From the NCBI GenBank assembly GCA_040954595.2, contig CM082585.2:4551358-4615357 (forward strand): a DNA stretch of 64,000 nucleotides, given 5' to 3'. The notes beneath the pieces are model-generated. The model was given only the letters and a program-made list of their open reading frames with translations. It ran no database searches and was not told the origin of the DNA. The DNA is from Balanoglossus misakiensis (taxonomy: Eukaryota > Animalia > Hemichordata). Below, piece by piece: positions 440-63,850 of this stretch (position 1 is its first letter; each line of letters starts with the position of its first letter). The translations under genes and the position numbers were made by a program.

Positions 440-495
440 CCGCCAGGTGGCGCCATTCACTGTCCTGATGACCTTTGACCCTAGTTAAAATGGCG
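440..495 (+). promoter_or_regulatory. Proximal promoter module: CTCF-like motif, DR1 nuclear-receptor element and YY1-type start context
   Basis: CCGCCAGGTGGCGC (440-453), TGACCTTTGACCC (469-481) and AAAATGGCGG over the ATG at 490. The CTCF-like motif recurs unchanged at 6729, 14050, 21117, 27305, 32829, 49379, 60666 and 61379. Motif identity is inferred from consensus match only. Confidence 0.55.
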
Positions 496-3202
496 GAAGC
501 TAACAAGCTGCAGACTAGATTGTGGCCGTGGACAACTGGAAACCGAATGGACACCACAACAATTTGCAACCACTTGACAAGTGCTGGTATGTATCTTTTT
601 CCACATATGTTCCTGCTGAGTTCGAAAGATAATGGTTTGCAGTAATTCGGTGACATTCGATCACTTTTTCGATAGTTCAATTAGTTGCTGCTGTTCCGTA
701 GCTCTACCACTCCCCCCCCCCAAAAAAAAAGAAACACCCTACAGCATCGCTGATCGTGAAAGAACACTAATTGTGACTAAAAAGCTATAGATCTCCCAAC
801 ATTTGGATTTGGTTTAATGTTTGTACACAACAAATTACGCACATGTACATAAGCTTAAGACAATCATCGTCCTGTTAATATTCAACAAATGAATTTTGAA
901 GGTTCTTTCTTGGGTGTTACAATGTATGTCCTAAACCAGTGTGTGTGGCAAAAACATGTGAACATAACATACCAGCAGACAGAATGTGAATGAATGTTCA
1001 TGCCTTATTTTTCCAGAATGTTCAGAGGTGTGCAGACTGTACAGAAATTCAAATAAGTTACATGAACTTGGCAGGCTATTGGAAGCATTAAATAGCAAAC
1101 TTAGGCATAAAGTTGAAGCTGGTGCTGAATCCTTTGATGGTAAGTAAGCATCAAGTCTTACTGTTACAATGGAGGTATATAGCTTAGACCTCCATATCAC
1201 TCATCATTTAGTTTCTATCCTGCTGTTTCTTGTCTCTGCAAAGAAAGGTGGCGCATACGAAATAATTCTTTCCAATAATTCGGCCAACAGAGAATAAGAT
1301 TTTTCTTACAAAAAAAAGGATGAAATATTGGCAGAAGTTGCATTTAAATCATGGAGAGAAAAAGAGCTTGTTGCTTTTTGTCGTGGGATATGGCATGGAA
1401 CATTTTCATATGGGTATGCAGTGTTTTTGCTAAGGTTGGGGAACATTGGTAATGGATTTGGGAACCCCGGTAACATTCCTATAACCCCCTAATATAACTC
1501 CATTGATACACCCAGGGGAACCCTGGTAAAATGACTGGGGAACACCGGTAGATTGTACCTAGATACCGCCCTTAACAAAAACACTGGGTATGGTGTTGTT
1601 AACAGTGTTGCGATGAATCTTGCTCTTCGAATATGTGTAAACCCAGCATGTCCTTATTCTACACTTGGTCATTGATAATTTTGCCAAAACTGTATAGTGC
1701 TTATCATAAACCTTCTTGTAAGTAACTACTTTGAGTGAAAAAGCACATCAATTTAACTCTAAAATAAGGATCACTCAATGTTGTGTACTTAAGAAAAAAC
1801 CTTATGAAATCATTTATTTTTTTCTATTTTCTTGATTTTCTAGAGTACAGGTAGTATTTATATTTACACATACAACATGGAGAAAACTAAAAAATTGTTG
1901 TTTGTCCAAACACATACTTGAATAAAAATGTAGGTCAATTTACAGATGTTGCGGAAAAATACATAACCAAAGACTAAAAAGCAACAGAGACCACTTCGCA
2001 TCAAACCCTAGTTGCCACGGAGGCCAACATTTGTAGTGGCAGTACCAAATCAAAATGGCATTTCTCCTATATATCCAAATGTAACTTAAAATAAATGACC
2101 ATGATTACTATTGCTAACATGCATGCATGTCATTTGCATACAAACTGGTGTTATTAACTCTACAGATACATTTGAATTTTTCCCCGTTGAGACAATTTTC
2201 CTAACCTTTCCAGATGTTTGTTTCCATCCAACAGATGTGTCCCTGATAATCCACACCCTGGCACACTTTGGCCATATTGAATTGAATCTACTGGATGATG
2301 TCGTCAGTGGAGATGTTGAACGAGAACTTGGGAGAGCACGGGGGCTGAACCTTGATGGCCAAACTGGACAGTGCCTGAGAGGATCAGTGATTGAAGAGTG
2401 TAGTACCGGTAGTCAGCAAGAACACACAGAGGTCTACACAAGTGAAAGGACATATTCATCCAGTGAATGTGGGAAAACATTTACGCAAACTGGAAATCTG
2501 AAGAGACACATGAGGATCCATACAAAGGAAAGACCATATTCATGCAGTAAATGTGGGAAAACGTTCACACAAAATGGAAATCTGAAGACACACATGGGGA
2601 TCCATACAAAGGAAAGACCATATTCATGCAATAAATGTGGAAAAACGTTTACACAAAATGGAAATCTGAAGACACACATGGGGATCCATACAAAGGAAAG
2701 ACCATATTCATGCAGTAAATGTGGGAAAACGTTCACACAAAATGGAAATCTGAAGACACACATGGGGATCCATACAAAGGAAAGACCATATTCATGCAAT
2801 AAATGTGGGAAAATGTTCACACAAAATGGAAATCTGAAGACACACATGGGGATCCATACAAAGGAAAGACCATATTCATGCAATAAATGTGGGAAAACGT
2901 TTACACAAAATGGAAATCTGAAGACACACATGGGGATCCATACAAAGGAAAGACCATATTCATGCAATAAATGTGGGAAAACGTTCACACAAAATGGAGA
3001 TCTGAAGACACACATGGGGATCCATACAAAGGGAAGACCATATTCATGCAGTAAATGTGGGAAAACGTTTACACAAAATGGAAATCTGAAGACACACATG
3101 GGGATCCATACAAAGGAAAGACCATATTCATGCAGTAAATGTGGGAAAACGTTCACACAAAATGGAAATCTGAAGGTACACATGAGGATCCATACAAACT
3201 AA
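490..3202 (+). CDS. C2H2 zinc-finger gene, copy 1 (exons 490-586, 1017-1139, 2214-3202; 1 degenerate + 8 intact fingers)
   Basis: Donors GTATGT (587) and GTAAGT (1140); acceptors TTTTTCCAG and CTAACCTTTCCAG; both introns phase 1. The splice gives an open frame MAEANKLQTRLWPW...ECSEVCRLY...ESFDDVCFHPTDVSL... into CxxC-x12-HxxxH repeats with TKERP linkers. Confidence 0.88.
1419..1586. mobile_element. 168-bp MITE, CAG...CTG termini, 6-bp TSD (hAT-like)
   Basis: TIR CAGTGTTTTTG(C/T)TAAGG matches 16/17; TSD GGTATG; empty site near 28293; same insertion at 22108-22275. Confidence 0.8.
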
Positions 3203-3500
3203 AGACCCTATTCATGCAATGTGGGAAAACATTTACGAGAACTGGACATCTAAAGGAACACGGCACCAAACAAAAGAATGACCATATTCATGCAGTAAAT
3301 GTGGTAAAACTTTTACTCAGAGGGGCGGTCTGCAGGAAGATACAAGGATCCATACAAATCTAAGACCTTATCCTTGCAGAGCATGTGAGAAAAACATTCA
3401 GAGTTTTAATCTAAAGAAACACAGAATGATCCATACAATTGAAAGTCTGTATTCATGCAATGAGTGTGAGAAAACATTCAATCAAATAGCCATCTAAAGG
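2452..3500 (+). repeat. 84-bp zinc-finger minisatellite with degenerate 3' tail (copy 1; equivalents in copies 2, 4, 5, 6, 7)
   Basis: Near-identical 84-bp units (...GGAAAGACCATATTCATGCA..AAATGTGGGAAAACGTT.ACACAAAATGGA.ATCTGAAG...), followed by frameshifted, diverged fingers after the stop. Confidence 0.95.
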
Positions 3501-3677
3501 AACATACAAATGAAAGACCATATTCTTGAAATGCATGTGGGAAGACATTTACATCAGGAGGCCATTTCCAACAACACATATATAAGGTTCCAGAACAAGA
3601 AATTCCATTTCACTCTAGGAGTCTTTGAATCAAAAAAAAAAGTTTTCTGGTAATTATAAAACTCAGAATCCCCTTAA

Positions 3678-6778: not shown

Positions 6779-9700
6779 ATGGCGGAAGCTAACACGCTGC
6801 AGTCTAGAGTGTGTCCGTGGACAACTGGAAACCGAATGGGCGCCACACCAATTTGCAACCACTTGACAAGTGCTGGTATGTATCTTTTTCCACATCTGTT
6901 CCTGCTGAGTTCGAAAGATAATGGTTTGCAGTAATTCGGTGACATTCGATCACTTTTTCGATAGTTCAATTTGTTGCTGCTGTTCCGTAGCTCTACCACT
7001 CCCCCCCAAAGAAACAACCTACAGCATCGCTGATCGTGAAAGAACACTAATAATAATTGTGACAAAAAAGCAATATATCTCCCAAAATCATATGCAATTG
7101 CAAGAACATTTGGATTTGGTGTAATGTTTGTACACACCAAATTACGCACATACGATCATCAAGCTTAAACTTTGTTGCAGTTTTGCAGCACCTCCGTTTC
7201 CCCTGGACGATTTTTGTTTTTGCGGGGAGAGGGCGAGGCTGCAGGCCGAGCTATTCTAAACTGCTCAACAACGATCGAGAATTCGGTCGGAGCGAATTTC
7301 TACACTACAGTCCACAATTTTCCACAATTTTCTCGGCAACTGGCCTTACTGGGTCCCGGAACCCATTCCACACTTGCGTGGCAAAGGATGTCACGGTATT
7401 TGTCGATTTTGCCTATGTTTTCCCAGTTCTTCAACCAAAATTGGCAATGGGTTTCAAAACAGCCGCCATCTTGACAAAAACAAAAATCGCCCAAGGAAGA
7501 CGGAGGGGCTGCAAAACTGCAGCAAGCTTAAACTTCATCCATAGACATATCATTATTCTCACTGTTAATATTCAACAAATGAATTTTGAAGGTTCTTTCT
7601 TGGGTGTTACAATGTATGTCCTAAACCAGTGTGTGTGGCAAAAACATGTAAACATAACATACCAGCAGACAGAGTGTGAATGAATGTTCATTCCTTATTT
7701 TTCCAGAATGTTCAGAGGTGTGCAGACTGTACAGAAATTCAAATAAGTTAAATGAACTTGGCAGGCTATTGGAAGCATTAAATAGCAAACTTAGGCATAA
7801 AGTTGAAGCTGGTGCTGAATCATTTGATGGTAAGTAAGCATCAAGTCTTATTATAACACACCATGCAGCGAACCCTCGATCGTGATTCGTCAATACGACG
7901 TCACGTGACCTTAGTCATTTCGAACTGTTGCCTGGGGCATCAGTTCGATCGGTTTGGTGTGTTATAAAACACATGATGGCTGACATATTCGGGCAACAGT
8001 GTATTTTTAATGACCTCGGGACTGCCAGTCACACCAAAACAGTCTGTTTTCCCTCGGGCTATGCCCTCGGGAAAACAAGACTGTTTTAGTTGTGACTAGC
8101 AGCACCCTCGGTCATAGTCTAGAATCTATCCGTTCGTAGTCGCATTCACCCTACTACCGTCTAGGAACGCCTAACCAAAATCTAGTAAGGCCATAAAAAT
8201 GGTAATTTGAATGTGAATAGTCTCCAACTGAGCAGTCTGACGTCAGAGAAGTCAATCACTTACGTTGACCGACTACAGATTGGCCGTTGATGGCATGGGT
8301 GTTTCTTCATTATTATTCATATATGCCCAATTATGGCACATGTTGCGGCTGCATTGTGTTTACAATGTAGTTCCGCCCCGAATGATACATAATCATGATC
8401 ACGTGGTGACGCTTGACGTCAGATTGCTCAGTTGGAGACTATTCACATTCAAATTACCATTTTTATGGCCTTACTAGATTTTGGTTAGGCGTTCCTAGAC
8501 GGTAGTAGGGTGAATGCGACTACGAACGGAGAGATTCTAGACTACCTCGGTCATCAAAATACACTGTTGCCCTCATTGTCAGTCATCATGTGTATACTGT
8601 TACAATGGCGATATATAGCTTAGAGTACAGGTAGTATTTATATTTACACATACAACATGGAGAAAACTAAAAAATTGTTGCTTGTCCAAACACATACTTC
8701 AATACAAAATGTAGGTCAATTTACAGATGTTGCGGAAAAATACATACCCAAAGACTAAAAAGCAACAGAGACCACTTCACATCAAACACTAGTTGCCACG
8801 GAGCCTAACATTTGTAGTGGCAGTACCAAATCAAAATCGCATTTCTCCTATATATCCAAATGTAACTTAAAATAAATGACCATGATTACTATTGCTAACA
8901 TGCATGCATGTCATTTGCATACACACTGGTGTTATTAACTCTACAGATACATTTGAATTTTTCCCCATTGAGACAATTTTTCTAACCTTTCCAGATGTTT
9001 GTTTCCATCCAACAGATGTGTCCCTGATAATTCACACCCTGGCACACTTTGGCCATATTGAACTGAACCCACTGGATGATGTCATCAGTGGAGATGTTGA
9101 ACAAGAACTTGAGAGAGCACGGGTGCTGAACCTTGATGGCCAAACTGGACAGTGCCTAAGAGGATCAGTAATTGAAGAGTGTTGTACAAGTAGTCAGCAA
9201 GAACACACAGAGGTCTACACAAGTGAAAGGACATATTCATCCAGTGAATGTGGGAAAACATTTACGCAAACTGGAAATCTGAAGGTACACATGAGGATCC
9301 ATACAAAGGAAAGACCATTCGTTTGCAGTAAATGTGGGAAAACGTTTACACAAAATGGAGATCTGAAGGTACACATGAGGATCCATACAAAGGAAAGACC
9401 ATATTCATGCAATCAATGTGGGAAAACTTTTGCGCTAAATGGAAATCTGAAGAAGCACATGAGGATCCATACAAAGGAAAGACCATATTCATGCAATCAA
9501 TGTGGGAAAATGTTTGCACGAAATGGAAATCTGAAGGTACACATGAGGATCCATACAAAGGAAAGACCATATTCATGCAATCAATGTGGGAAAATGTTCA
9601 CACAAACTGGAGATCTGAAGGTACACATGAGGATCCATACAAAGGAAAGACCATATTCATGCAATCAATGTGGGAAAACTTTTGCGCTAAATGGAAATCT

Positions 9701-10655
9701 GAAGAAGCACATGAGGATCCATACAAAGGAAAGACCATATTCATGCAATCAATGTGGGAAAATGTTTGCACGAAATGGAAATCTGAAGGTACACATGAGG
9801 ATCCATACTAAGGAAAGACCATATTCATGCAATCAATGTGGGAAAGCGTTCACACAAAATGGAAATCTGAAGAAACACATGAGCATCCATACAAAGGAAA
9901 GACCATATTCATGCAATCAATGTGGGAAAGCGTTCACACAAACTGGAGATCTGAAGGTACACATGAGGATCCATACTAAGGAAAGACCATATTCATGCAA
10001 TCAATGTGGGAAAATGTTTACACGAAATGGAAATCTGAAGGTACACATGAGGATCCATACAAAGGAAAGACCATATTCATGCAATCAATGTGGGAAAATG
10101 TTCACACAAACTGGAGATCTGAAGGTACACATGAGGATCCATACTAAGGAAAGACCATATTCATGCAATCAATGTGGGAAAGCGTTCACACAAAATGGAA
10201 ATCTGAAGAAACACATGAGCATCCATACAAAGGAAAGACCATATTCATGCAATCAATGTGGGAAAGCGTTCACACAAACTGGAGATCTGAAGGTACACAT
10301 GAGGATCCATACTAAGGAAAGACCATATTCATGCAATCAATGTGGGAAAATGTTTACACGAAATGGAAATCTGAAGGTACACATGAGGATCCATACAAAG
10401 GAAAGACCATATTCATGCAATCAATGTGGGAAAATGTTCACACAAACTGGAGATCTGAAGGTACACATGAGGATCCATACTAAGGAAAGACCATATTCAT
10501 GCAATCAATGTGGGAAAGCGTTTACACAAAATGGAAATCTGAAGAGGCACATGAGGATCCATACAAAGGAAAGACCATATTCATGCAATCAATGTGGGAA
10601 AACATTTACGCGAACTGGACATCTGAAGAAGCACATGAGGATCCATACAAAGTAA
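6779..10655 (+). CDS. C2H2 zinc-finger gene, copy 2 (exons 6779-6875, 7707-7829, 8995-10655; 1 degenerate + 16 intact fingers)
   Basis: Same splice sites and phases as copy 1, with an open spliced frame. Further out-of-frame fingers continue to ~11860. Confidence 0.88.
7172..7525. mobile_element. 354-bp MITE, ~50-bp TIR, 9-bp TSD
   Basis: TTG(T/C)TGCAGTTTTGCAGC...; TSD GCTTAAACT (7163-7171 and 7526-7534); empty site ATCAAGCTTAAACTTCATCC at 14494. Confidence 0.85.
7851..8596. mobile_element. Asymmetric hairpin element (short IR pair + large palindrome; Crypton-type tentative)
   Basis: Absent at sister sites TCTTA|CTGTT. TTATAACACACC/GGTGTGTTATAA pair, then palindrome ACACATGAT...ATCATGTGT; no TSD longer than TA. 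Confidence 0.65.
8115..8544. mobile_element. 430-bp MITE, TAG...CTA termini, ~130-bp TIR, 9-bp TSD (AcademH-like), nested
   Basis: TIR TAGTCTAGAATCT(A/C)TCCGTTCGTAGTCGC...; TSD CCTCGGTCA (8106-8114 and 8545-8553). Confidence 0.9.
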
Positions 10656-11860: not shown

Positions 11861-14800
11861 AACATACAAATGAAAGACCATATTCTTGAAATGCATGTGG
11901 GAAGACATTTATATCAAGAGGCCATTTCCAACAACACATGAAAATATATATAAGGTTCCGGAAGAAGAAATTCAATTTCACTGTAAGAGTCTTTGAATCA
12001 AAAGTGTTCTGGTAATTATAAAACTCAGAATCCCTTTAAAGCGGGCAGCTCGTCTCACGCGCATGCGCGTAACTTCCCAGCAAATTTTCCGTTCGATGCA
12101 TTCAAATAATGGACTGCCTTCGCTTCCTTCCATATTTCATTCGCACCGTGTTAGTAGATTCTGGTTTTGTCCCTCCTTTTCACCCAAGCTAGTGTCTTTT
12201 CCCGATCTCCAACACAGATTATGGTCTCCGCCATCTTGTGTGAGCACTGCCTCATGGGATCGACTGTTCACTAAAGGTCTGTAACCAGCGGCTACAGTTG
12301 GAACATGCGTGTGAGACGAGCTACACGCTTTAAACTAAGCATATATTTATAATATATTATATCAGAAAGCTTAGATATAGAGGGGAACATTTTGGTTACT
12401 GTACTTCAGTGTGACAAGCAATATAAATAACCTTCCTGAAACTAGAGATTCTACTTGAATTTGTGTTAATGCAAGCTGTTGTAACTGTAATACAAAGTGT
12501 GCCTGGGATGTTCTTCAACCGCTTCTGAGTTGTAAATCAACCCTGTGGTCTATCAATTTGCTCCCCAAAAAATCTAGATAAAAAATACTGTCATATTGTG
12601 TCAATCGCTGGGGCAAATTTCAATAGCCTGGGGTGAAAACTGAACTCTCCAGGTGCTGCCAAAGACAGTGACACTCTTCATCACACTTCGTTACTCGAAG
12701 TTACTTTGTTTACTTTGTTACTTCGTTACATTGTTTTGGGTATTTCCACCAAAGATTGTTGATTAGAGACAGAAAATGTGTGATTTTGGCTTGAATATAT
12801 TCAATCTGACTTTGAAGTATTCACTATTGGTAAGGATATCATCCATAATGAGTAGGATAGGGCTTAAAGGGACTCTCTCTTGCTGCCCCTTTTCCATTAA
12901 TTATGTTTGATACAAGATACTGCTTATGTTATTCTACATGTGGATGTATAGTGAATCAACTTTCTTCCACAAACAACTTCCATCCTGTTTGTAGGATATG
13001 AGAGTAAAAATCTCACCAAAGTGAATAAGGGTAAACACCGATTATTCATTTTGGCGAGTTTTTTCACTCTCATGTCTCCAAGTGGGATAGAAGTTGTGTG
13101 TGGTTGAACGTTGATTCACTATATATCCACATGTAGAATAACATATATGGTGTCTTGTATCAAACATAATTAATAGAAACAAGGACAATGAAAGAGAGAT
13201 TTTGTCCCTTTAAGTCTTTAGATTGTACACCAGAAATGTATATGAATTCCATGTTCTACCAAGTGGATTGGGATGTTTATTGTTATCACATTAACAGTTG
13301 AAACGAATGTGTATTTGGCCAGGGCTGAACTACTGGCAGAACAATCATGGTTAACTGTTCACTGTTTGTGATCAATTCTTACAAGTGTATTTTTGTGTTT
13401 TTGTTGTCAGACCAATAATCAGTCAAAACTAGTTGAATTTTTGGAGTTAGCTCCCCACCTCCTTCAATTCCTCTTTTTTTTAATCTGTAGTTCTGTATGA
13501 AAAAGATTTTGATTGATGTAGGCCCATAAGGAACCCAATTCATCCAAAACATAGACATGTTTCCGACTACTCTTTTATTGTTTGTATTCTGGTTTCTACG
13601 AGTGTCATTATGTGGTTTTTGTTGGTCAATAAACAACTGAAACTGTCCAAATTTTGGAATGACCTTTGATCCGATTCTCCCCACTACAACATTCTATATA
13701 CAGACTTTAAAAACTAAAAATGATTAGGAATGGGATACATGAACATTTTTGAGGGTCAAAATCTCGCCCTCTGAGATATTAATGCCTTTATATTGGACAT
13801 ATATACCAGTACCAAATTCCATCGCAAATATTGAAAACAAGTGAATACTGAATACACGTGGAAAGTCTGACTTCGCTAGTGCTGAGACACATTTTGAAAC
13901 CATCGTTTTTAATATTGTTTCAATGCTTGCAGTTGAGTTTGAAGTTTACTGGTGCGGGCGGAGACGAAGTTGTTGTCCGTTTAAGAGAAGTTGACCAGCC
14001 CAGCTGTCACGTACATGTCCCTGCAACGAAAACCCCTCTCAGTTCCTTTCCGCCAGGTGGCGCCATTCACTGACCTTTGACCCTAGTTAAAATGGCGGAA
14101 ACTAACATGCTGCAGACTACATTGTGGCCGTGGACAACTGGAAACCGAATGGACGCCACACCAATTTGCAACCGCTTGACAAGTGCTGGTATGTATCTTT
14201 GTCCACATCTGTTCCTGCTGAGTTCGAAAGATAATGGTTTGCAGTAATTCGGTGACATTCGATCACTTTTTCGATAGTTCAATTAGTTGCTGCTGTTCCG
14301 TAGCTCTACCACTCCCCCCCCCCCCCACAAAGAAACAACCTACAGCATCGCCGATCGTGAAAGAACACTTATAATTATTGTGACAAAAAAGCTATAGATC
14401 TCCCAACATCATATGCAATTTGGAACACATTTGGATTTGGTGTAATGTTTGTACATACCAAATTACGCACATGTACATAAGCTTAAGACGATTATCAAGC
14501 TTAAACTTCATCCTCCATAGACGTATCATTATTATAACTGTTATTTAAGCAATAACATTTATTGCTTAAATATTCAACAAATGAATTTTGAAGGTTCTTT
14601 CTTGGGTGTTACAATGTATGTCCTAAACCAGTGTGTGTGGCAAAAAAAACATGTAAACATAACATACCAACAGACAGAATGTGAACGAATGTTCATGCCT
14701 TATTTTTCCAGAATGTTCAGAGGTGTGCAGACAGTACAGAAATTCAAATAAGTTACATGAACTTGGCAGGCTATTGGAAGTATTAAATAGAAAACTTAGG

Positions 14801-15440
14801 CATAAAGTTGAAGCTGGTGCTGAATCCTTTGATGGTAAGTAAGCATCAAGTCTTACTGTTACAATGGAGGTATATAGCTTAGACCTCCATGCTGGTACAT
14901 GTCATTCATCATTTACCGGTAGTTTCTATCCTGTTGTTTCTTGTCTCTGAAAAGAAAGGTGGTGCATACGAAATAATTCTTTCCAATAATTTAGCCAACA
15001 GAGAATAAGATTTTTCTTACAAAAAACGGATGAAATATTGGCAGAAGTTGCATTTAAATCATGGGGGGAAAAAAAGCTTGTTGCTTTTTGTCGTGGGATA
15101 TGGCATGGACACTTTTCATGTGGGTCTGATTTTGTTAAGTGTTGCGATGAATCTTGCTCTTCGAATATGTGTAAACCCAGCATGTCCTTATTCAATCTGA
15201 TTAAAATCAGATGTAGGGAACGGCGATTTGGTTTTTTTTATGCTGTCGCCTCACACTACATCTGACCAACTCTCAATGGAGATCCCGCTGAAATCGCGCA
15301 TTCCGACCCGGCCAATCAGATTGCGTGTTATGCCGACTAAAGAATTGCACTGGGAGATGGGAGAAATTTTGTTGTTGACTTCGAGTATCGCACAGAATAC
15401 GAAAGATTGGCTTTCTCTTGTGAACAATTACCGGTATATG

Positions 15441-15900
15441 TATTATTATACATCTAGTGCCGAGAACAATAGATTTTGGCGTGCAATAAAAAGCCGTACG
15501 GAACGGTACGTACGGAACGCGCGTTAAATAAGCCTTAGTTTCAAGGCGCCCCAAACTCACCGTGTACAGGTATGCGCTGTTATGCGAACGGTTTCAAGGC
15601 GCCCGCATTCCAACGCACGTGCGCACACGTAAACAAAAAAGAAAGATGGCTGCTCACTGAGTCAACTGAGTGGTTTTCGATCGATTGTATCGGCATTTTG
15701 GGCGTTTTGAAAGCCATGTAACATGCAACACAAGAACTAACGGAGATGTAAGATGTATAATAATAAGGTTATTACGAAAATACCGCAAAGTATGCACTCG
15801 GACATTAACGCAGCGCATCGCCCTCCGCTACGCGTCGGGCGATACTCAGCGCTAATGTCCTCGTGCATACTTTGCAGTTATTTTCGTAATAACCTCATAA
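15441..15900. mobile_element. Asymmetric hairpin element nested in 15193-16746
   Basis: TATTATTATACATCT/AGATGTATAATAATA pair, followed by a ~130-bp palindrome (AGGTTATTACGAAAATA...TATTTTCGTAATAACCT). Boundaries approximate. Confidence 0.55.
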
Positions 15901-16190
15901 TCCCATGATATCTGTCTTTGTTTGGCGTCATCGTATGCGAGTGGTTTTCGCAGAGCAGTGCAACGTCGAGCTGTAGCCATATACAAATGATGAACTGTCG
16001 TTGATCATTTATAAACTCTCCTAACAAGTCGTCATGTTCACCCTCGTAGTCATGCTGCCAGTCGGGAAAATGACGTACTTCATGTAAAAGTTTATAAAAA
16101 ATAAACCAAATTTCACTGTCATGTATCCCAAAACAATTTTGAACAGATTTTTAAAGAGAACGCTAACTTCGGCTAAGGAATGTCAAGTCA

Positions 16191-16433
16191 TAGCTCCGCG
16201 TTCAGGTCTGTGTGTTCCCGACGCACCACAGCCCTGCATAAGGCCCCATAGACAAAACTGGTGCGTCTGCTGTCCGGACCCGGACGCCCGACCGCAGCTT
16301 TTTCTGTCGAAATTCGATTTTATCGAAGCAAAATCCTTTCCCTGTCTACTTCAACCGACCCCAAATATGATGCAATTAACTTTTTCTAAAGTCCGTGTAA
16401 CGCCGTGAACACACAGACCTGCACGCAGAACTA
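16191..16433. mobile_element. 243-bp MITE, TAG...CTA termini, 9-bp TSD (AcademH-like), nested
   Basis: 27-bp imperfect TIR TAG(C/T)T(C)..CAGGTCTGTGTGTTC; TSD GTCAAGTCA. Confidence 0.8.
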
Positions 16434-19163
16434 GTCAAGTCAGTGCACTGTGCAGTCGGTCGGTACACTCTGGTGTATACAAACGATCGTGGCGACAGAA
16501 TCTCTCCCTGGGACGGCCTTACACAAATGTAATCGATTCTCTAACAATTTTACGGCGACTTGTTGCCACGTCTTATACATTTCGTTGACCGGTGGAAGAT
16601 AGAGGTTCAGTCGTCACGCTGAACTGGCTCGAAACCATTCCCCAAGCTTCAGCGGGATCTCCATTGAGAGTTGGTCAGATGTAGTGTGAGGCGACAGCAT
16701 AAAAAAAACAAGTCGCCGTTCCCTGCATCTGATTTTAATCAGATTGGTCCTTATTCTGCACTTGGTCATTGATAATTTTGCCATAACTGTATAGTGCATA
16801 TCATAAACCTTCTTGTAAGTAGCTACTTTGAGTGAAAAAGCACATCAATTTAACTCTAAAAACAAGGATCACTCCTGTTACTTGTCTCTGCAAAGAAAGG
16901 TGGCGCATATGAAATAAATCTTTCCAATAATTCAGCCAACACTGGCAACAGAGAGTGAAAAAGCATATCAATTTAACTCTAAAATAAGGATCACTCAATT
17001 TGGTTTACTTAGGAAAACCCTTATGAAATCATTTATTTTTTTCTATTTTCTTGATTTTCTAGAGTACAGGTAGTATTTATATTTACGCATACAACATGGA
17101 GAAAACTAAAAAATTGTCGTTTGTCCAAACACATACATGAATAAAAATGTAGGTCAATTTACAGATGTTGCGGAAAAATACATATCCGAAGACTGAAAAG
17201 CAACAGAGACCACTTCACATCAAACACTAGTTGCCACGGAGCCTAACATTTGTAGTGGCAGTACCAAATCAAAATCACATTTCTCCTATATATCCAAATG
17301 TAACGTAAAATAAATGACCATGATTACTACTGCTAACATGCATGCATGTCATTTTGTGTACACACTGATGTTATACATTTGGATTTTTTCCCCTTTGAGA
17401 CAATTTTCCTAACCATTCCAGATGTTTGTTTCCATCCAACAGATGTGTCCCTGATAATTCACACCCTGGCACACTATGGCCATATTGAATTGAAACTTCT
17501 GGATGATGTCATCAGTGGACATCTAAAGAAAACATGAGGATCCATACAAAGTAAAGACCATATTCATGCAATGAATGTGGGAAAACTTTTACTCAGAGGG
17601 GCGGTCTGCAGGAAGATACAAGGATCCATACAAATCTAAGACCTTATCCTTGCAGAGAATGTGAGAAAAACATTCAGAGTTTCAATCTAAAGAAACAGAA
17701 TGATCCATACAATTGAACGTCTGTATTCATGCAATGAATGTAGGAAAACATTCAATCAAATAGCCATCTAAAGGAACATACAAATGAAAGACCATATTCA
17801 TGAAATGCATGTGGGAAGACATTTACATCAAGAGGCCATTTCCAACAACACATGAAAATATATATAAGGTTCCGGAAGAAGAAATTCAATTTCACTCTAA
17901 GAGTCTTTGAATCAAAAGTGTTCTGGTAATTATAAAACTCAGAATCCCCTTAAAGCGGGCAGCTCGTCTCACGCGCATGCGCGTAACTTCCCAGCAAATT
18001 TACCGTTCGATGCATTCAAATAGTGGACTGCCTTCGCTTCCTTCCATATTTCATTCGCACCATATAAGTAGATTCTGGTTTTGTCACTCCTTTTCACCCA
18101 AGCTAGTATCTTTTCCCGATCTCCAACACAGATTATGGTCGCCGCCATCTTGTGTGAGCACTGCCTTATGGGATTAACTGTTCACTAAACGTCTGTAACC
18201 AGCGGCTACAGTAGGAACATGCGTGTGAGACGAGCTACGCGCTTTAAACTAAGCATATATATATTTTCAGAAAGCTTAGATATAGAGGGGAACATTTTGG
18301 TTACTTCAGTGTGACAAGCAATATCAAATAACCTTCCTGGAACTAGGTATCCAACTTGAATTTGTGTGAATGCAAGCTCTTGTAACTATAATACAAAGTG
18401 TGCCTGGGATGTTCTTCAACCGCTTCTGAGTTGTAAATCAACCCTGTGGTCTATCAATTTGATCCCCAAAAAATCTAGATAAAAAATACTGTAATATTGT
18501 GTCAATCGCTGGGGCAAATTTCAATAGCCTGGGGTGAAAACTGAACTCTCCAGGTGCTGCCAAAGACAGCGACCCTCTTCATCACACTTCGTTACTCGGA
18601 ATAACATGAAAAACGTTTTTTGACACTCATGTATCATGTTACCTGTACATATGTAAAGGACCAGGAGATGCTGTCTTTAAAAAATCTAAGAAATTTCAAA
18701 TCCTCTCCTTGCAACTGGACGTCTTATCCTTACAACCGAATGCCTTCTCGTGACCTAAACATCCATTCCCATATAAATCCACACCATCTAGCTCCGAAAA
18801 GCATGGACCCTTAAAGAAGTGCAATCCCTGCTTTGGTGTTGAACACACGCCATACTTGGCTAATGTCACGTTAATTATAATACAATTAACACTGCTACTA
18901 TGTGCTTGATAATAAACTGACATTGTTTTCGGTATTTCCACCAAAGATTGTTGATTAGAGACAGGAAATGTGTGATTTTGGATTAAATATATTCAATCTG
19001 ACTTTGAAGTATTCACTATGTATTCATCCATAGTGAGGAGGCCAGAAATGTACATAAATTTCATGTTCTACCAAGTGAATTAGGATGTTTATTGTTATCA
19101 CATTAACAGTTGAAACGAATGTGTATTTGGCCAGGGCTGAACTACTGGCAGAAGAATGGTTAA

Positions 19164-49428: not shown

Positions 49429-52400
49429 ATGGCGGAAGCTAACATGCTGCAGACTAGACTGTGGCCGTGGAGAACTGGAAACCGAATGAACGCCACACCA
49501 ATTTGCAACCACTTGACAAGTGCTGGTATGTATCTTTTTCCACATCTGTTCCTGCTGAGTTCGAAAGATTATGATTTGCTGTAATTCGGTGACATTCGAT
49601 CACTTTTTCGATAGTTCAATTAGTTGCTGCTGTTCCGTAGCTCTACCACTCCCCCCAAAAGAAACAACCTATATAGCATCGCCGATCGTGAAAGAACACT
49701 TATAATTAATATTGTGACAAAAAAGCTATAGATCTCCCAACATCATATGCAATTGGAAGAACATTTGGATTTGATTTAATGTTTGTACACACCAAATTAC
49801 GCACATGTAGTACATAAGCTTAAGACGATTATCAAGCTTAAACTTCATCCTCCATAGACATTATTATAACTGTTAATATTCAACAAATGAATTTTGAAGG
49901 TTCTTTCTTGGGTGTTACAATGTATGTCCTAAACCAGTGTGTGTGGCAAAAAAACATGTAAACATAACATACCAGCAGACAGAGTGTGAATGAATGTTCA
50001 TGCCTTATTTTTCCAGAATGTTCAGAGGTGTGCAGACTGTACAGAAATTCAAATAAGTTACATGAACTTGGCAGGCTATTGGAAGTATTAAATAGCAAAC
50101 TTAGGCATAAAGTTGAAGCTGGTGCTGAATCCTTTGATGGTAAGTAAGCATCAAGTCTTACTGTTACAATGGAGGTACAGACCCGCCAATAAGTATTTAC
50201 GCACCCACGTTCTGCAGTCAAAACGTTTCAGAAACATGAAATAACACACCTTGCAGACAGTTTTTAGCGAAATTCAAAAATATTTAATAAATTCACGAGA
50301 AACAACAGTTGTACAGCGAAAATCTTTCATGTGCGATTAAATTTGAGCGAGAAATATTGACGTAAATATAGATATGCAACGGAGTCGGCGAAACGTTCCA
50401 TTCTCTATGGGAACAACAATGCAAAGAACGTCATGAATATTCATGAGGTGAAATCGAACGTAACAACTGTCAATAATGGGTATGTCCACCCCTTCTCCTG
50501 ATGACCTCTCGCAGGCGCTTGGGCATAGTGTCGACGAGTTTCCGACACATATTTTGCTGGAATTGTTCCCAAGATGTTACAATGCGGTCAAACAGGTCGT
50601 CGATGCTGTGAATTGGACGGGAATGAACGTCCAAGTCAATTAACTCCCACAGGTTTTCGATGGGGCTCAAATCTGGAGACTGGGCTGGCCACTCCAAAGT
50701 AGTGAAATTGTCAAACGGATTTCCGTAATCCTGGGGATTTTGCAGAAATGATTTCACATCCAAGGCAGTATGTACGGGGGCATTATCCTGCTGGAACACA
50801 AAGTCGGGCCCTACGAGTCTCAAAGCCGATGGTAGCATTTCGTTTTGTAGAACGTCCAGGTACTTCCAGCGATTCATGGTGTTCTCGACTCGAACGAGCG
50901 AACCCACACCTGCAGCCGAGAAACAACCCCAAACCATGACACTGCCACCACCAAACTTTACTGTGGGACTGATACAGTCAATTTCGTACTCCTCGCCGGG
51001 TCGCCGTCTAACGAAAACTCTCCCTCGGCTCCTGTACACGGTGAACTTCGACTCGTCCGACCAAACAACCCGGGACCACTGAACAGGAGTCCAGTTGACG
51101 TAACGCCGGGCGAAACGTAGTCGCGCTGTGATGTGCCTGGGTTGTAATTTCGGCTTTTTCTTGGCCACACATCCACAAAGTCTGGCTCCTCTATACAATC
51201 GGGATTTGATTGTGCTCAGACTCAAAAGTTTCCCGGTATCCTCGTGAAACTTAGCGCGGAGGTCACGGGCCGTCTTAAACCTGTCCGTCAGGCTTGATCT
51301 AATCAACATTCGGTCTTCCCATTCCGTTGTTCGCCTTTGCCGTCCAGACCGAGGTAAATTGTCCGTGCTACCATTTTGAGCAAGTTTCTGAATATTGTAC
51401 CTGACGCTGCCTTCGGTGATTCCAAACTTCCTTGCGATTTCTCGGTTTCTCAAACCTTGCCTATGCAGTGCCTCAATTTGACCTTTCAAAAATTCAGGAA
51501 GTTCGCGAACTTTGGGCATGGTTTCATTGATCCAATGTTTACAAACAAAAATTATGCAGCAACCTCCGACGACCTCGATCAGAATATTCATAAGCAAGTC
51601 TGGCAGATTTTCCCGCCCCCAAATTTAATCGGAATTATATTTAAAAGCTCTGATTGGTGGATATTTAAATATGAATAGAGGGAAATTAGCCACGGAAACA
51701 ATGGCGCGAAAAGTTAATGAGATGCAAATGATATGTTAATGAGTATACCGCCATTGCAATAACCATAGGAATTTTCACTGGCCGAAAAACACACCGCGTA
51801 TGCAGTCATATTCAGCGCGGCAACACATCTGTGTTGACTAAAATTTGTTAATTATTCCGTTGGTTATTTATTTTCGGAAATAAGTTACAGTCGATCGATT
51901 TTGTGAATAATTTTTCATGTCAAACGTACATTTTCAAGGTGCGTAAATACTTATTGGCGGGTCTGTATATAGTTTAGAGTACATGCAGTATTTATATTTA
52001 CACATACAACATGGAGAAAACTAAAAAAAATGTTGTTTGTCCAAACACATACTTGAATAAAAATGTAGGTCAATTTACAGATGTTGCGGAAAAATACATA
52101 TCCGAAGACTGACAAGCAACAGAGACCACTTCACATCAAACACTAGTTGCCATGGAGCCCAACATACGTAGTGGCAACACAGGGGGCTGCAAACATGAAA
52201 GTTATAAATGGCGAAGTACGTTCCGTTCTGCAGTTTTCCCAACCTGTCTTATCATTTGCTAATCCAGAATAAAAGCTATCAATTTCCCATTAATCATCTG
52301 CTAACGACTTAATCTATGTGCCCCATCCAAGGATTAAGTTGATAAAGTAAACATTGGTCAGCGAGTACTGGGTATAACAAGAGTAAGGGAGGAAACTCGC

Positions 52401-55115
52401 TCAAGGCATGTCCACATTTTCGTACTTTTAAAAACATGCCCGCCAATTAAACAGTCATCATCAGTTTTGTTATGCTTAAAAATGTGTGCATCTCGCGCTT
52501 GTCGCGTGGAAATTGCTTTGTTTTCTCAAAAAACGTGACTGGATGTTCACTTGGCGATGTCCAGAGGTCGCCCGTAAACCTGGATACCACTTTTGACCTT
52601 TGACTGTTTATTTCAAAACCACGTGAGCATCAGGGGTAAACAAATTACCCATGCATAGCATGCAGTTGTGTTGTTTATGTTTGTTTCACCATGAACGTCC
52701 ATGGTTTCGCAAGTTGCTGACTAAAATCAAAGTGGCAAACTTTCCATATAGGCCTACAAAAATTGTTCTCCGAAGGCAAAGATATAGAAAAAGGGCGTCT
52801 GTTTCCGCAGAAATGGGCCTACAAACGCTCGTAGCGGCATCTCAGCCTCAGACCCCAGACAAACGTCATTGATTCTCTAACAACATGAACTGTGACGTTT
52901 TTTCCACGTCTTACAAGTTACAATGACCGGTGGACGGTCATCGAAACCATTCCCGCAGGCAAACAAATGTGCAGGCTCGCTTTAGGACCGGTAAACTTTT
53001 CAAATCCACCTTTCTCGTATTGATTTTACCCACCGATATTCTCATGGGCCACCAGTACATGCCCTTGTAATTTCGTTTTACAAGAAAGTAACAGCGACGG
53101 ACGGGCGAATCAGTGAAAAAAGTTCGGATTGATGTCGTAGAACAAGGGTAAATTCGGTAAATTTTAATTTGACCTGTTTTACCTCTTACAAGTGGCTATA
53201 CGGGCCAGTTCATGTGATAACTCTATAAATATTGTAAAATCTGAATGTGCCGCGGAACATAAACAGATGCCGCGCCAGGCAACGCATTCATAATTCTTCC
53301 TGTCCGGCTTCTGTGCATTATACATATTCATGTATTTAGCTTCTTGTTGATTTATGAATATATGAATATTAAGTGGTACCCGGGTTTACGGGCAACCTCT
53401 GGACATGCCTTGAGCGAATTTCCTCCCTTCCTCTTCTTTTACCCAGTGAGAACTGATCAATGTTTACTTTATCCACTAAATCCGTGGATGGGGCACACAG
53501 ATTAAGTCGTTAGCAGGTGTGTTATGGGAAATGCGATAGCTTGTATTCTGGATTAGCAACTGATAAGATAGGTGGAGGTAAAACAGAAAGATAAACAAGC
53601 ACAAAAACTGTTCATCAAGTACTGTTTATTGGGGGAAAATGCAGGAACTCCGCCATTTATAACTTTCATGTTTGCAGCCCCCTGTGGTGGCAGTACCAAA
53701 TGCTATACATTTGTATATCCAAATGTAACGTAAAATAAATTACAATACTATTGCTAACTGCATGCATGTCATTTGCATACACACTGGTGTTATTAACTCT
53801 ACAGATACATTTGGATTTTTTCCCCTATGAGACAATTTTCCTTACCTTTCCAGATGTTTGTTTCCATCCAACAGATGTGTCCCTGATAATCCACACCCTG
53901 GCACACTTTGGCCATATTGAACTGAACCCACTGGATGATGTCATCAGTGGAGATGTTGAACGAGAACTTGAGAGAGCACGGGTGCTGAACCTTGATGGCC
54001 AAACTGGACAGTGCCTAAGAGGATCAGTAATTGAAGAGTGTAGTACCGATAGTCAGCAAGAACACACAGAGGTCTACACAAGTGAAAGGACATATTCATC
54101 CAGTGAATGTGAGAAAACATTTACGCAAACTGGAAATCTGAAGAGACACATGAGGATCCATACAAAGGAAAGACCATTTGTTTGCAGTAAATGTGGGAAA
54201 ACGTTTACACAAAATGGAGATCTGAAGGTACACATGAGGATCCATACAAAGGAAAGACCATTTGTTTGCAGTGAATGTGGGAAAACGTTTACACAAAATG
54301 GACATCTAAAGACACACATGGGGATCCATACAAAGGAAAGACCATTTGTTTGCAGTGAATGTGGGAAAACGTTTACACAAAATGGACATCTGAAGACACA
54401 CATGAGGATCCATGCAAAGGAAAGACCATTTGTTTGCAGTGAATGTGGGCTAACTTTTGCACTAAATGGAAATCTGAAGAGACACATGACGATCCATACA
54501 AAAGAAAGACCATTTGTTTGCAGTGAATGTGGGAAAACGTTTACACAAAATGTAAATCTGAAGAGACACATGAGGATCCATACAAAGGAAAGACCATTTG
54601 TTTGCAGTAAATGTGGGAAAACGTTTACACAAAATGGAGATCTGAAGGTACACATGAGGATCCATACAAAGGAAAGACCATTTGTTTGCAGTGAATGTGG
54701 GAAAATGTTTACACAAAATGGACATCTAAAGACACACATGGGGATCCATACAAAGGAAAGACCATTTGTTTGCAGTGAATGTGGGAAAACGTTTACACAA
54801 AATGGACATCTGAAGACACACATGAGGATCCATGCAAAGGAAAGACCATTTGTTTGCAGTGAATGTGGGCAAACTTTTGCACTAAATGGAAATCTGAAGA
54901 GACACATGAGGATCCATACAAAAGAAAGACCATATTCATGCAATCAATGTGGGAAAACGTTTACACAAAATGTAAATCTGAAGAGACACATGAGGATCCA
55001 TACAAAGGACAGACCATTTGTTTGCTGTGAATGTGGGAAAACGTTTACACATAATGGAGATCTGAAGAGACACATGAGGAATGTGGGAAAACATTTACTC
55101 GAACTGGACACCTAA
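49429..55115 (+). CDS. C2H2 zinc-finger gene, copy 7 (exons 49429-49525, 50017-50139, 53854-55115; 1 degenerate + 10 intact fingers, then frameshift)
   Basis: Conserved splice sites. A ~34-nt deletion at 55080 shifts the frame, leaving 3 more fingers out of frame (to 55396). Confidence 0.8.
50178..51965 (-). mobile_element. Intact Tc1-like DNA transposon
   Basis: Perfect 28-bp TIR CAGACCCGCCAATAAGTATTTACGCACC; TA TSD; empty site GGAGGTATATAG in the other units. Confidence 0.96.
50470..51519 (-). CDS. Tc1-family transposase (349 aa from MPKVREL), DD42E triad
   Basis: HTH region with SGRQR, then VWSDESKF, TVKFGGGSVMVWGCF, FQQDNAPVH and WPAQSPDLSPIENLW. The second D (50785-50787) and the E (50656-50658) are separated by 42 codons. 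Confidence 0.95.
   Translation of the reverse strand: MPKVRELPEFLKGQIEALHRQGLRNREIARKFGITEGSVRYNIQKLAQNGSTDNLPRSGRQRRTTEWEDRMLIRSSLTDRFKTARDLRAKFHEDTGKLLSLSTIKSRLYRGARLCGCVAKKKPKLQPRHITARLRFARRYVNWTPVQWSRVVWSDESKFTVYRSRGRVFVRRRPGEEYEIDCISPTVKFGGGSVMVWGCFSAAGVGSLVRVENTMNRWKYLDVLQNEMLPSALRLVGPDFVFQQDNAPVHTALDVKSFLQNPQDYGNPFDNFTTLEWPAQSPDLSPIENLWELIDLDVHSRPIHSIDDLFDRIVTSWEQFQQNMCRKLVDTMPKRLREVIRRRGGHTHY
52178..53686. mobile_element. 1.5-kb P-like element (same insertion as 37305-38817)
   Basis: Same TIR and site; TSD GTGGCA(A/G). Confidence 0.88.
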
Positions 55116-57979: not shown

Positions 57980-58011
<32 letters not shown>

Positions 58012-60272: not shown

Positions 60273-60715
60273 TACTCATTAATTGTTTGTATTCTGATCT
60301 TTACGAGTGTCATTGTGTGGTTTTTTGTTGGTCAATAAACAACTGAAACTGTCCAAATTTTGGAATGACCTTTGATCCAATTCCCCCCACTACAATATTC
60401 TATATACAGACTTTAAAAACTAAAAATGATTAGAAATGGGATACATTTTTGAGGGTCAAAATCTCACCCTGGAAAGTCTGACTTCGATAGTGCTGAGACA
60501 CATTTTGAAACCATCGTTTTATAATATTGTTTCAATGCTTGCAGTTGAGTTTGAAGTTTACTGGTGCGGGCGGAGACGAAGTTGTTGTCCGTCTATAGGA
60601 AGTTGACCGACCTTTCACGTACATGTCCTTGGTCACATCCCAACGAAAGCCCCTCTCAGCCCTTCCCGCCAGGTGGCGCCATTCACTGACCTGATGACCT
60701 TTCACCCTAGTTAAA

Positions 60716-61254
60716 ATGGCGGAAACTAACATGCTGCAGACTAGTCTCGGTTACCCAGAGCCCTCTGCTTCTTCCGTTAGGCACTTCAGAAAGAGGGTCT
60801 GGGGAAACCCGGTAGACAAACCGTCAGGCGGAATCGGACAGCTGCGATGCATGACGGGAGATTAATATTCGATACGATATTATGATATGTCGATATTAGA
60901 AAACTATTTACCGAACTTCTCTCTCTCTTTTCAATTTGTATACAGTTTTAGCAGGTCTAGCACTTCTCAGCATGTTTTCTTTATCGTATGTCATGCATGT
61001 CGCGACGTCGGCCGTGGGTTCGCGCGCAGGACGTCGCCATTTTGGAATATTAATCTCCCGTCATGCATCGCAGCTGTCCCGATTCCGCCTGACGGTTTGT
61101 CTACCGGGTTTCCCCAGACCCTCTTTCTGGAGTGCCTAACGGAAGAAGCAGAGGGCTCTGGGTAACCGAGACTAGCTGCAGACTAGACTGTGGCCGTGGA
61201 GAACTAGAAACCGAATGAACGCCACACCAATTTGCAACCACTTGACAAGTGTTG
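60716..61254 (+). pseudogene. Orphan exon 1 disrupted by a MITE (collapsed unit)
   Basis: ATG at 60716; MITE after codon 8; donor changed to GTATAT; the sequence then restarts in the promoter at ~61316. Confidence 0.75.
60742..61174. mobile_element. 433-bp MITE, TAG...CTA termini, ~130-bp TIR, 9-bp TSD (AcademH-like)
   Basis: TIR TAGTCTCGGTTACCCAGAGCCCTCTGC...; TSD GCTGCAGAC. Confidence 0.9.
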
Positions 61255-61420
61255 GTATATATCTTTTTCCACATCTGTTCCTGCTGAGTTCGAAAGATAA
61301 TGATTTGCAGTAATTCGGCCTGTCACGTGCATGTCCTTGGTCACGTCACATCCCAACGAAAGCCCCTCTCAGTCCTTTCCGCCAGGTGGCGCCATTCACT
61401 GACCTTTGACCCTAGTTAAA

Positions 61421-63850
61421 ATGGCGGAAACTAAATTGCTGCAGACTATATTGTGGCCGTGGACAACTGGAAACCGAATGGACGCCACACCGATTTGCAA
61501 CCGCTTGACAAGTGCTGGTATGTATCTTTTTCCACATCTGTTCCTGCTGAGTTCGAAAGATAATGGTTTGCAGTAATTCGGTGACATTCGATCACTTTTT
61601 TCGATAGTTCAATTAGTTGCTGCTGTTCCGTAACTCTACCACTCCTCCCCCCCCAAAAGAAACACCCTACAGCATCGCTGATCGTGAAAGAACACTAATT
61701 GTGACAAAAAGCTATACATCTCCTAACATCATATGCAATTTGGAGAACACTTGGATTTGGTTTAATGTTTGTACACACCAAATTACGCACATGTACATAA
61801 GCTTAAGACGATCATCAGCTTGTTAATTAAGCAATAACCCCCGCCGCAGGCGGGTATACACGAGATTTGGGTACAATTCGAGACATATAGCACGAGCCGT
61901 CAGGCGAGTGCTATATGGAGCGAATTGTACCCAAATCGAGTGTATACCCGACTGAGGCGGGGGTTATTGCTATTATATTATATCAACAACTGTTTTGTGG
62001 CATATCAGTGTCATTTTCTTACCGAAACGGCGTCAGAAAGAGAAATTACGATCGTGAACCAAAATGGCGACGACGAATGTAAACACGCGCGGCCGGGATC
62101 GAGCATTAAACATGCAGCAGACGACAAAAAGTGACAAGACGGGCATCGCGCGTGGCAAAGCGATAAATATATCCACAGAGCAGTTCCAAAATAAAACGTC
62201 CGTTAATTCAACAGTACAGTGGAACGCCGATTATCCGAACCTGTTGGGCGGGTTAGATTTTGTTCGGATAATTGATTGTTCGGATAATTGATTTTGGCAC
62301 GTCCGAACAAAGGAAATTGACCACACCATTGGGGCATGCGTATGTTACGATGTTTCCCACATGCACATGCATTTTCCATGCACTCACAAAAAGAAGTTAA
62401 TAAAACAATAAAACACAATTCGTCTTCTTTTATATAAAAAAAATACATATATTAAGAGTTCAAAAGGTTAAGAAAGAAAAAAAGACGAAGTCAAAGCTGC
62501 AATGTTCTGATCCGTTCAACATCGTATGTGGCCGGTCATCGTACCAAACCATGAACGTGCGTAGGCCTTCCATGGCCTCGGTAGATTTCGCTAGAGCTGG
62601 TGTCTCGTTCTCTTTATCGTCCTAATTTTTCATGCCATGAGTTTATTTCTGAGAAACAAAGTCGATGATTTCATCATACGTTAATGTTTCGAAGCTGTCA
62701 TAGTTCTCGCTAGTCTCCAAATCTTCGATGTCAGTGACATTCAAACCGCGCTAAACAAGCTCTCCGCACGAGGTCACTTCCGCAAGTGACGTCTTGGCTG
62801 TCATTCATATCGGCGCTGCCATGGTCACCGACCGCGACCCGACACGCCTTCACTGTGTCGCGGAATGAAGTCCACGCGTTTGAAAAGCCGTGTCTTTGAT
62901 GTTGACACCCCGGACGATCTCCGCCGTCTGCTCGCACGAGTCGAAGACGGGCGATCTCATCCAACCCATGGCTTTCATTTGTATTATCAACGACAGTGCT
63001 AAGCTTATTTCGGCGATAAATCTACTTCACACTATCAAAAAATTGACCAAAGCCGTGCCGACGCGACAAGTGATTTTGCGTGTTTTACACTTGAGTGTGA
63101 AATCCCAGTGTCGAATGTTACGATACCCGAAAGTGTGGCACTCTGTTGTCGTAAAATGATTGAAATATTCAATGATAAAGACGTTTTTAACACGTCCCAC
63201 CGCCCTTTACAACAGAAACAATAAGAACTGACCAAAGAAAACTGCCCGAAATGTCAGTTTTCCTGCGGAAATGTCACAGACTGCCGAGAAAACAGGTGCT
63301 TGGCATGGCTAATTAAAGGTTCAGGGACCGTACCCGGGACCGTACCAAAGCGTTCGGATAATCCGAAATTCGGATAATCGGCGTTCGGATAATCGGCGTT
63401 CCACTGTATTTTGTTTTATTTATTTGGTTTAAACACGCGCGACTGTGGTTTAACCGCACATTTTTGCTGCCGAATGCTAGTTCAGGGGCCCGTTTTACCA
63501 CTGCTAGCCATGGTAAAACAGTATTTTACCATCGCTGGATTCAGCTCTCGTCCAATCAGAATCACAGACGGTAGCATGATATAATATAATATTCAACAAA
63601 TGAATTTTGCAGGTTCTTTCCTTGATGTGTATGTCCTCAACCAGTGTGTGTGTGTGTGGCAAAAACATGTAAACATAACATACCAGCAGACAGATTATGA
63701 ATGAATGTTCATGCCTTATTTTTCCAGAATGTTCAGAGGTGTACAGACTGTACAGAAATTCAAATAAGTTACATGAACTTGGCAGGCTATTGGAAGCATT
63801 AAATAGCAAACTTAGGCATAAAGTTGAAGCTGGTGCTGAATCCTTTGATG
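61421..63850 (+). CDS. Zinc-finger gene copy 8, partial (exons 61421-61517 and 63728-63850; exon 3 outside the window)
   Basis: Intact 97-nt and 123-nt exons with conserved splice sites. Confidence 0.75.
61826..63588. mobile_element. Asymmetric hairpin element with nested MITE
   Basis: Absent at sister sites TGTTAATATTC. Palindrome AGCAATAACCCCCGCC...GGCGGGGGTTATTGCT, then TATATTATATCA/TGATATAATATA pair. Confidence 0.7.
62217..63406. mobile_element. 1.19-kb non-autonomous Tc1/mariner-pogo-like element, TA TSD
   Basis: TA|CAGTGGAACGCCGATTATCCGAAC...GTTCGGATAATCGGCGTTCCACTG|TA; subterminal TTCGGATAAT repeats. Confidence 0.88.

Follow-up and report, generated by a model that had tools for sequence, protein, structure and literature searches.

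KRAB zinc-finger genes combine small 5′ exons with one finger exon, stand in tandem clusters amid transposons and vary at the residues that contact DNA. The same layout is found in a 64,000-nucleotide (nt) stretch of the hemichordate Balanoglossus misakiensis (assembly GCA_040954595.2, contig CM082585.2, positions 4,551,358 to 4,615,357; hereafter the window), which holds eight head-to-tail copies, all on the + strand, of one Cys2-His2 (C2H2) zinc-finger gene unit; the N-terminal head of these genes differs in having no KRAB similarity. In cyprinid fish, the FiNZ zinc-finger (FiNZ-ZNF) genes are lineage-restricted, clustered C2H2 genes with a short head encoded by a 5′ exon (Wells et al, 2023; PMC10547256). 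As the available sections of that paper describe it, the FiNZ head has 28 amino acids (aa), is glutamate-rich or acidic and lies in one exon; it occurs in ~700 zebrafish genes and is conserved across cyprinids, the base-contacting residues of the fingers vary most, and recruitment of silencing proteins by the head is left open there. The genes of the window share with this description the clustering, the short head and the contact-residue pattern, but their head has so far been seen in a single locus, in eight nearly identical copies. The ZADs of arthropod C2H2 genes homodimerise, according to the part of the paper available (Bonchuk et al, 2021; PMC7913770); here too an N-terminal head sits on a fast-expanding C2H2 family, and homodimerisation is one likely role of its predicted helix. 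A precedent for a head as a self-association handle is the DUF3669 head of some KRAB-ZNFs, described in the accessible text of a preprint as a captured oligomerising segment in front of the finger array (bioRxiv 10.1101/2025.03.01.640934); in contrast, the exon pieces of the present head have no Pfam match and no similarity to the first open reading frame (ORF1) of the long interspersed nuclear element (LINE) in the window, the one ORF1 compared.

Outside tetrapods, cyprinids and arthropods, the effector parts of finger genes are mostly unnamed, and a new head whose partner was demonstrated would shed light on the action of finger genes that lack KRAB. Across animals, finger-gene number tracks retroelement load regardless of the accessory domain, and the ZAD-ZNFs of flies illustrate that such families need not target transposons (both from the available sections of PMC10547256). 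The present value of the locus is limited by its familiar design and by copies too young to prove a conserved domain.

The reading that we favour, at slightly better than even, is that of a young tandem C2H2 family with predicted three-exon splicing, in which reshuffled DNA-reading arrays are joined to a slower-changing, helical head core that binds a protein partner. The finger arrays would be retuned by unequal exchange, the head core would present a helix with a leucine face and a second, short hydrophobic one to another copy of the same protein or to a cofactor, and exon 1 would mainly provide the start in frame. As TRIM33 has been proposed as a partner of fish KRAB-like and FiNZ proteins (PMC11603059, in the part available), a TIF1-type protein would be the first candidate partner. 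In favour of this reading are the frame without indels, the confinement of the one exon-1 insertion to a redundant remnant, the decay of finger repeats after the stop codon, the pattern of change in the fingers, the slow core and the modelled helix of exon 2. Open frames, splice signals, constrained fingers with variable contact sites, mosaic copies and fast change in exon 1 and the linker are seen in the sequence itself, and the helices are predictions. From the sequence we infer that the genes are expressed, that the arrays bind DNA and that the head binds a partner; repression and transposon targets may be proposed only by analogy with KRAB and FiNZ genes. The family would work like the KRAB, FiNZ and ZAD designs and is a member of none of them.

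An earlier note on this DNA had described a tandem family of three-exon finger genes. The array, with its small 5′ exons and one large finger exon, stands; complete three-exon genes are found in six of the eight copies, whose predicted products are 402-626 aa long and contain 8-16 canonical C2H2 fingers each, and exon 3 lies inside the window in seven. The copies, and a broken 5′ remnant immediately upstream of copy 8, are as follows.

490..3202, + strand: copy 1, exons 490-586, 1017-1139 and 2214-3202; predicted 402 aa, 8 canonical fingers
6779..10655, + strand: copy 2, exons 6779-6875, 7707-7829 and 8995-10655; predicted 626 aa, 16 fingers
14092..17537, + strand: copy 3, exons 14092-14188, 14712-14834 and 17422-17537; finger array lost, predicted 111 aa, head only
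21167..23891, + strand: copy 4, exons 21167-21263, 21710-21832 and 22903-23891; predicted 402 aa, 8 fingers
27355..30501, + strand: copy 5, exons 27355-27451, 27892-28014 and 28925-30501; predicted 598 aa, 15 fingers
32871..40225, + strand: copy 6, exons 32871-32967, 33403-33525 and 38985-40225; predicted 486 aa, 10 canonical fingers and one without its last His
49429..55115, + strand: copy 7, exons 49429-49525, 50017-50139 and 53854-55115; predicted 493 aa, 10 fingers
60713..61316, + strand: broken ninth 5′ remnant, exon 1 interrupted by a 0.43-kb inverted-repeat element (60745-61171), donor changed, without an exon 2 of its own
61421..63850, + strand: copy 8, exons 61421-61517 and 63728-63850; exon 3 past the window end (base 64000)

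With its reshuffled arrays, finger-less copy, broken remnant and intronic transposons, the locus is a clear case of finger-gene turnover. The head without fingers of copy 3 could, if expressed, compete for a partner, or the copy may be a fresh pseudogene; finger-less KRAB-only proteins offer a comparison for such a head-only product.

In all eight copies, a 97-nt exon 1 starting with ATG and a 123-nt exon 2 are open, free of insertions and deletions (indels) and bounded by phase-1 GT-AG sites, at the positions that the earlier note had given; exon 2 is therein a symmetric phase 1-1 exon, and the splicing is predicted, with junctions at 586/1017 and 1139/2214 in copy 1. On a rough splice-site score, with three of the eight copies scored, both donors rank 1 and 2 among 119-133 GT sites and the acceptors 2-5 among 112-122 AG sites. 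Projected on copy 1, the alignment has no indel in 457 exon nt versus 90 patterns in 1364 non-coding positions, the latter an overcount reflecting alignment ambiguity. At a conservative rate (14 gap clusters in 430 nt of intron 1, six of the eight copies), 7.2 indels would be expected in the 220 nt of exons 1 and 2, and none is seen (P ~8e-4). As 51 of 1023 non-coding windows of 97 nt and 25 of 926 windows of 123 nt are also indel-free, each exon alone is only moderately unusual, and the absence of stop codons is uninformative by itself (P 0.23). Taken together, the frame is preserved beyond chance. Many indels and inverted-repeat elements are found in the introns, as had been noticed before, and transposons occupy introns and spacers and none of the eight intact exon pairs; the sole exon-1 insertion is that of the redundant ninth remnant.

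The predicted head comprises 98 aa across the three exons and is near neutral in charge, with 12 acidic and 10 basic residues. Its N-terminal sequence as printed in the earlier note proved to be a consensus, exact in no copy (copy 1 differs at residue 24). The parts of the head downstream of exon 1, and the linker that follows the head, are given here in the coordinates of copy 1.

1019..1138, + strand: exon 2 codons, residues 34-73, predicted single helix
2214..2288, + strand: exon-3 start, first 25 codons, a slow-changing hydrophobic segment
2289..2453, + strand: linker of ~55 codons, changing at the non-coding rate (21 changes against 21.7 expected), followed by the first finger

We compared the rate of change of each part with that of the non-coding DNA of the array. 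Exon 1 has 19 distinct changes in its 97 nt against 12.7 expected, 16 of them altering an amino acid and 3 silent, which corresponds to a ratio of non-synonymous to synonymous change (pN/pS) of 1.5; for exons 1 and 2 jointly the ratio is 1.2. Exon 2 and the first 75 nt (25 codons) of exon 3, 198 nt in all and hereafter the core, its boundaries having been picked after inspection of the data, carry 13 changes, half the 26 expected (Poisson P 0.004). Among 1046 non-coding windows of this length, 1.3% are as slow, and the change rates of exon 1 and the core differ (Fisher P 0.001). Neutral evolution, which the earlier note had named as counting against its reading of exons 1 and 2, is seen for exon 1, whose rate equals or exceeds that of the non-coding DNA. 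The slower part of the head spans ~65-75 residues in these sequences, and the ~100-aa module of the earlier note does not form a single conserved block, exon 1 being as variable as it is. The claim of a conserved 100-aa effector domain goes further than the data allow; the observation of the array largely holds.

Modelled alone, exon 2 gives one 37-residue helix with a mean predicted local distance difference test (pLDDT) score of 90. Its hydrophobic moment peaks at residues 46-66, and Leu 47, 50, 54, 57 and 61, invariant in all eight copies, fall in heptad a/d register; the amphipathic helix proposed before is borne out for exon 2 as a prediction by fold model, hydrophobic moment and leucine heptad alike. 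For the exon-3 start, the model shows a short helix and then a strand with fair confidence, and low confidence in the second half of the linker. In these models of separate pieces, an acidic loop separates the exon-2 helix from the short exon-3 helix, the whole covering ~60 residues. A complex prediction with two exon-2 and two exon-3 pieces gave no answer (score 0.02). The CxH..CxxxC cluster pointed out in the earlier note (Cys26, His28, Cys34 and Cys38) is present, and it is intact in six of the eight copies only, namely the six full-length ones; it is changed in copies 3 and 8, at residues 28 and 38 in the latter. The cluster may have a metal-binding role, on which these two altered cases are too few to decide.

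A Pfam C2H2 profile (PF00096) matches copy 6 with E 3e-94, and the array contains 63 finger units of 84 nt, 47 of them distinct, units without a full linker before the stop being left out of this count. Five of the six ligand and core positions (the two Cys, Phe, Leu and the first His) never vary, and 46 of the 47 distinct units retain the last His; the first finger is without its first Cys in all six full copies. Pairwise pN/pS, with the synonymous value of all sites as base, is 0.02 at the zinc ligands and core (six positions), 0.76 at the remaining positions, 1.8 at helix positions -1, 2, 3 and 6 and 2.1 at -1, 3 and 6, values that come from non-independent pairs and describe a pattern rather than a formal test. 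Variable DNA-contact residues, in support of the interpretation of the earlier note, are found over the 47 distinct units. Both the array length and the finger code differ among copies. Homogenisation is strong in copies 1 and 5, whose units differ from one another by 2.3-3.0 nt, and the arrays of copies 4 and 6 are mixed, with differences of 12-13 nt. In PRDM9-type minisatellite finger arrays, near-identical 84-nt units are likewise homogenised within a gene and change at contact positions, a likeness seen here in the 84-nt units of copies 1 and 5 and in the focus of change on the contact positions. As judged from these sequence patterns, the fingers behave like working DNA-binding domains, and the arrays likely read DNA.

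Decayed finger units, 5-16 of them, lie 3′ of the stop codon in each of the seven copies with exon 3, many shorter than 84 nt and often frameshifted. The tail of copy 1 is given as an example.

3210..3598, + strand: decayed finger repeats after the stop codon of copy 1, 5 units

Longer post-stop tails are found in copies 2 (10662-11949, 16 units) and 7 (55080-55788, 9 units), where some units are still 84 nt long; both show internal duplications that took along the stop-bearing unit.

We then compared the head with the known families. A KRAB profile, built from 50 KRAB-like starts among 120 listed proteins, scores the spliced heads at -1.9 to -2.5 bits versus a median of 104.5 for its members, and 313 of 500 shuffled sequences score at least as high as copy 1. 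ZADs have four invariant Cys in two Cys-x2-Cys pairs; the Cys/His residues of the head include no such pair and the cluster is lost in two of the eight copies. Between head and fingers there is no room for the SET domain of PRDM9, and the family is here a multi-copy tandem one. Membership in the RING, B-box, coiled-coil (RBCC) class of TRIM proteins is contradicted by the lack of a RING, a B-box and a ~100-residue helix in a head of 98 aa whose helix has at most 37 residues. From FiNZ, the head is set apart by description rather than by profile, since it spans three exons and is not acidic (the available sections of PMC10547256).

Remote searches used single-exon pieces of 25-78 aa, a length at which distant relatives could be missed. 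Pfam and NCBIfam returned no family for any head piece; word-index protein searches gave 0 of 20 candidates at E<=1 among longer proteins for exon 2, and 0 of 6 candidates for the exon-3 start with linker. A profile of the first 33 exon-3 residues had no match at E<=0.001 among 1.84 billion protein representatives. The finger exon matches generic finger proteins at 34-54% identity, among whose 120 listed matches none carries the head, and the best score of the head against 119 pre-finger regions of listed finger proteins is 2.2 bits. For the exon-3 piece, the best ESM Atlas match (0.86) is unnamed, Foldseek gave no match at E<=0.001, and the highest VIA Z among 48161 chains was 2.6, results that decide nothing given the weak model (mean pLDDT 57). 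In scans of contig collections, a relative was found in 0 of 594 and 0 of 186 pattern matches from metagenomes and in 0 of 21 from viruses. A transposon origin of the head was looked for in the window, where the best off-target six-frame matches had E 0.06-0.1 and none fell in the LINE ORF1, and keyword searches of open-access text returned no description of such a head. Two sets of hits were judged to be chance: PDB sequence matches of 9-41 residues to LRR, DARPin and TorS proteins, every single stretch with E>9 in the printed alignments, and a 20-residue match of 55% on a bacterial contig picked by the pattern itself, one of 54 pattern matches in prokaryote genomes. The head is an orphan, with no match in any library searched; the module remains unassigned to any named ZNF-associated domain in these libraries, as the earlier note had put it.

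Several of these results weigh against a partner-binding core. No relative outside the array is at hand to show long-term conservation. Neither part of the core is significant by its pN/pS, 0.8 for exon 2 (6 amino-acid and 2 silent changes) and 0.2 for the exon-3 start (2 and 3), and since silent changes are also few, the slowness is not clearly at the protein level; taken singly, exon 2 is matched by 7.4% and the exon-3 piece by 14.6% of non-coding windows, and the post hoc boundaries count on the same side, as does the non-independence of the finger pairs. With six variable positions, the five leucines would all stay invariant by chance about 4 times in 10 (calculated by hand), isolated helices readily yield confident models, and the finger-less copy 3 preserves its head as well as the full copies do. 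In addition, no single tree accommodates 19 of the 28 pairs of informative sites, which suggests exchange between copies, able to flatten any stretch; such mosaic exchange could explain part of the slowness of the core, and the youth of the copies likely accounts for much of their similarity. In a second reading, which we regard as less probable but still serious, the head is an in-frame spacer without specific function, open only because the start exon has to be joined to the fingers, and its sameness is due to recent duplication and exchange. It agrees with the pN/pS of 1.2 in exons 1 and 2, with an overall count of exon substitutions close to the non-coding rate (55 versus 60 expected), with the site-pair conflicts, with the first 120 nt of intron 1 being as uniform as exon 2, and with the lack of outside relatives. 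A spacer does not account for a core with half the expected changes next to an exon 1 and a linker that show no such deficit, and a leucine heptad over 2-3 repeats followed by a second hydrophobic segment is more ordered than a typical linker.

Two readings give the core a foreign origin. Exon 2 and the exon-3 start might derive, by capture, from the second hairpin segment of a TRIM- or NCOA4-type coiled coil and pack on the long helix of a TRIM dimer of the host, such as a TIF1-type co-repressor, bringing it to finger sites; the exon-3 start may resemble the motif that ends TRIM coiled-coil/NCOA4(ARA70) hairpins, as the earlier note had suggested. We consider this capture unlikely. The layout of helix, acidic loop and short helix over ~60 residues fits the second segment of KAP1, which, in the accessible text of the preprint, follows a long helix (244-348), is partly helical (357-405) with a flexible middle, and packs on the first (bioRxiv 10.1101/505677). 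Against it, the RING, the B-box and the long first helix, the packing surface of that second segment, are absent here, and no TRIM or NCOA4 entry came up in the Pfam, PDB sequence or 1.84-billion-protein profile searches, which have little power with single-exon pieces of this size. A bolder version, in which the captured hairpin piece would mimic the co-repressor's own tail and dock on a TIF1-type dimer, giving KRAB-like silencing in a non-vertebrate lineage aimed by fast-changing fingers at young transposons, strikes us as very improbable. We give equally little credence to an origin of exon 2 by shuffling from an alpha-solenoid protein of the clathrin-repeat, VPS or IFT140/172 type, in which case it would fold as a helix-turn-helix and offer a generic protein-binding patch. 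A symmetric phase 1-1 exon suits such shuffling, and an ESM Atlas feature search of exon 2 gave a first match of 0.95, with the ten best family-bearing matches all in the clathrin-repeat/TPR family or clan; yet the recognition value of 1919 lies below the tool's mark of 2300, a third of shuffled proteins also obtain ten concordant matches, the first Atlas cluster carries the family on only 18% of its members, Pfam returned no such family, and the model of exon 2 is one unbroken helix.

The DNA between and within the genes contains further elements, listed here with the region around the start codon.

440..495, + strand: start region, kept in 9 of 9 5′ ends
43828-48710, + strand: LINE between copies 6 and 7 with two long open frames, an ORF1 that carries zinc knuckles and an ORF2 for a 1190-codon endonuclease-reverse transcriptase
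50177-51966 (transposase frame 50473-51624, - strand): Tc1/mariner-type element in intron 2 of copy 7, its inverted ends 29-30 bp long and its transposase frame open
58171-60171, - strand: second reverse-transcriptase frame, 667 codons, between copies 7 and 8
15193-16746, 20138-20859, 33574-37100, 37302-38820, 52178-53686 and 60745-61171: terminal-inverted-repeat inserts in introns and spacers

The LINE is probably young, since both long frames are open. Gene structure and transposon content are those of an animal host. Intron 2 of copy 6 holds two inverted-repeat elements and that of copy 7 a second one beside the Tc1-type element; the inserts at 37302 and 52178 have common ends and lie at an equivalent position in copies 6 and 7. 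An invariant 14-mer is located 42-50 bases upstream of the ATG in all nine 5′ ends. The 14-mer is a putative CTCF-like site; other candidate sites of the start region are a nuclear-receptor-like direct repeat and, across the ATG, a YY1-like context. The CTCF-like sites form a same-strand array, with one about every 6-16 kb. Further upstream, a non-coding block of ~140 nt (about 232-385 and the equivalent places of the other copies) is indel-free with few changes in the seven copies aligned, and could be a promoter, or an upstream or opposite-strand exon.

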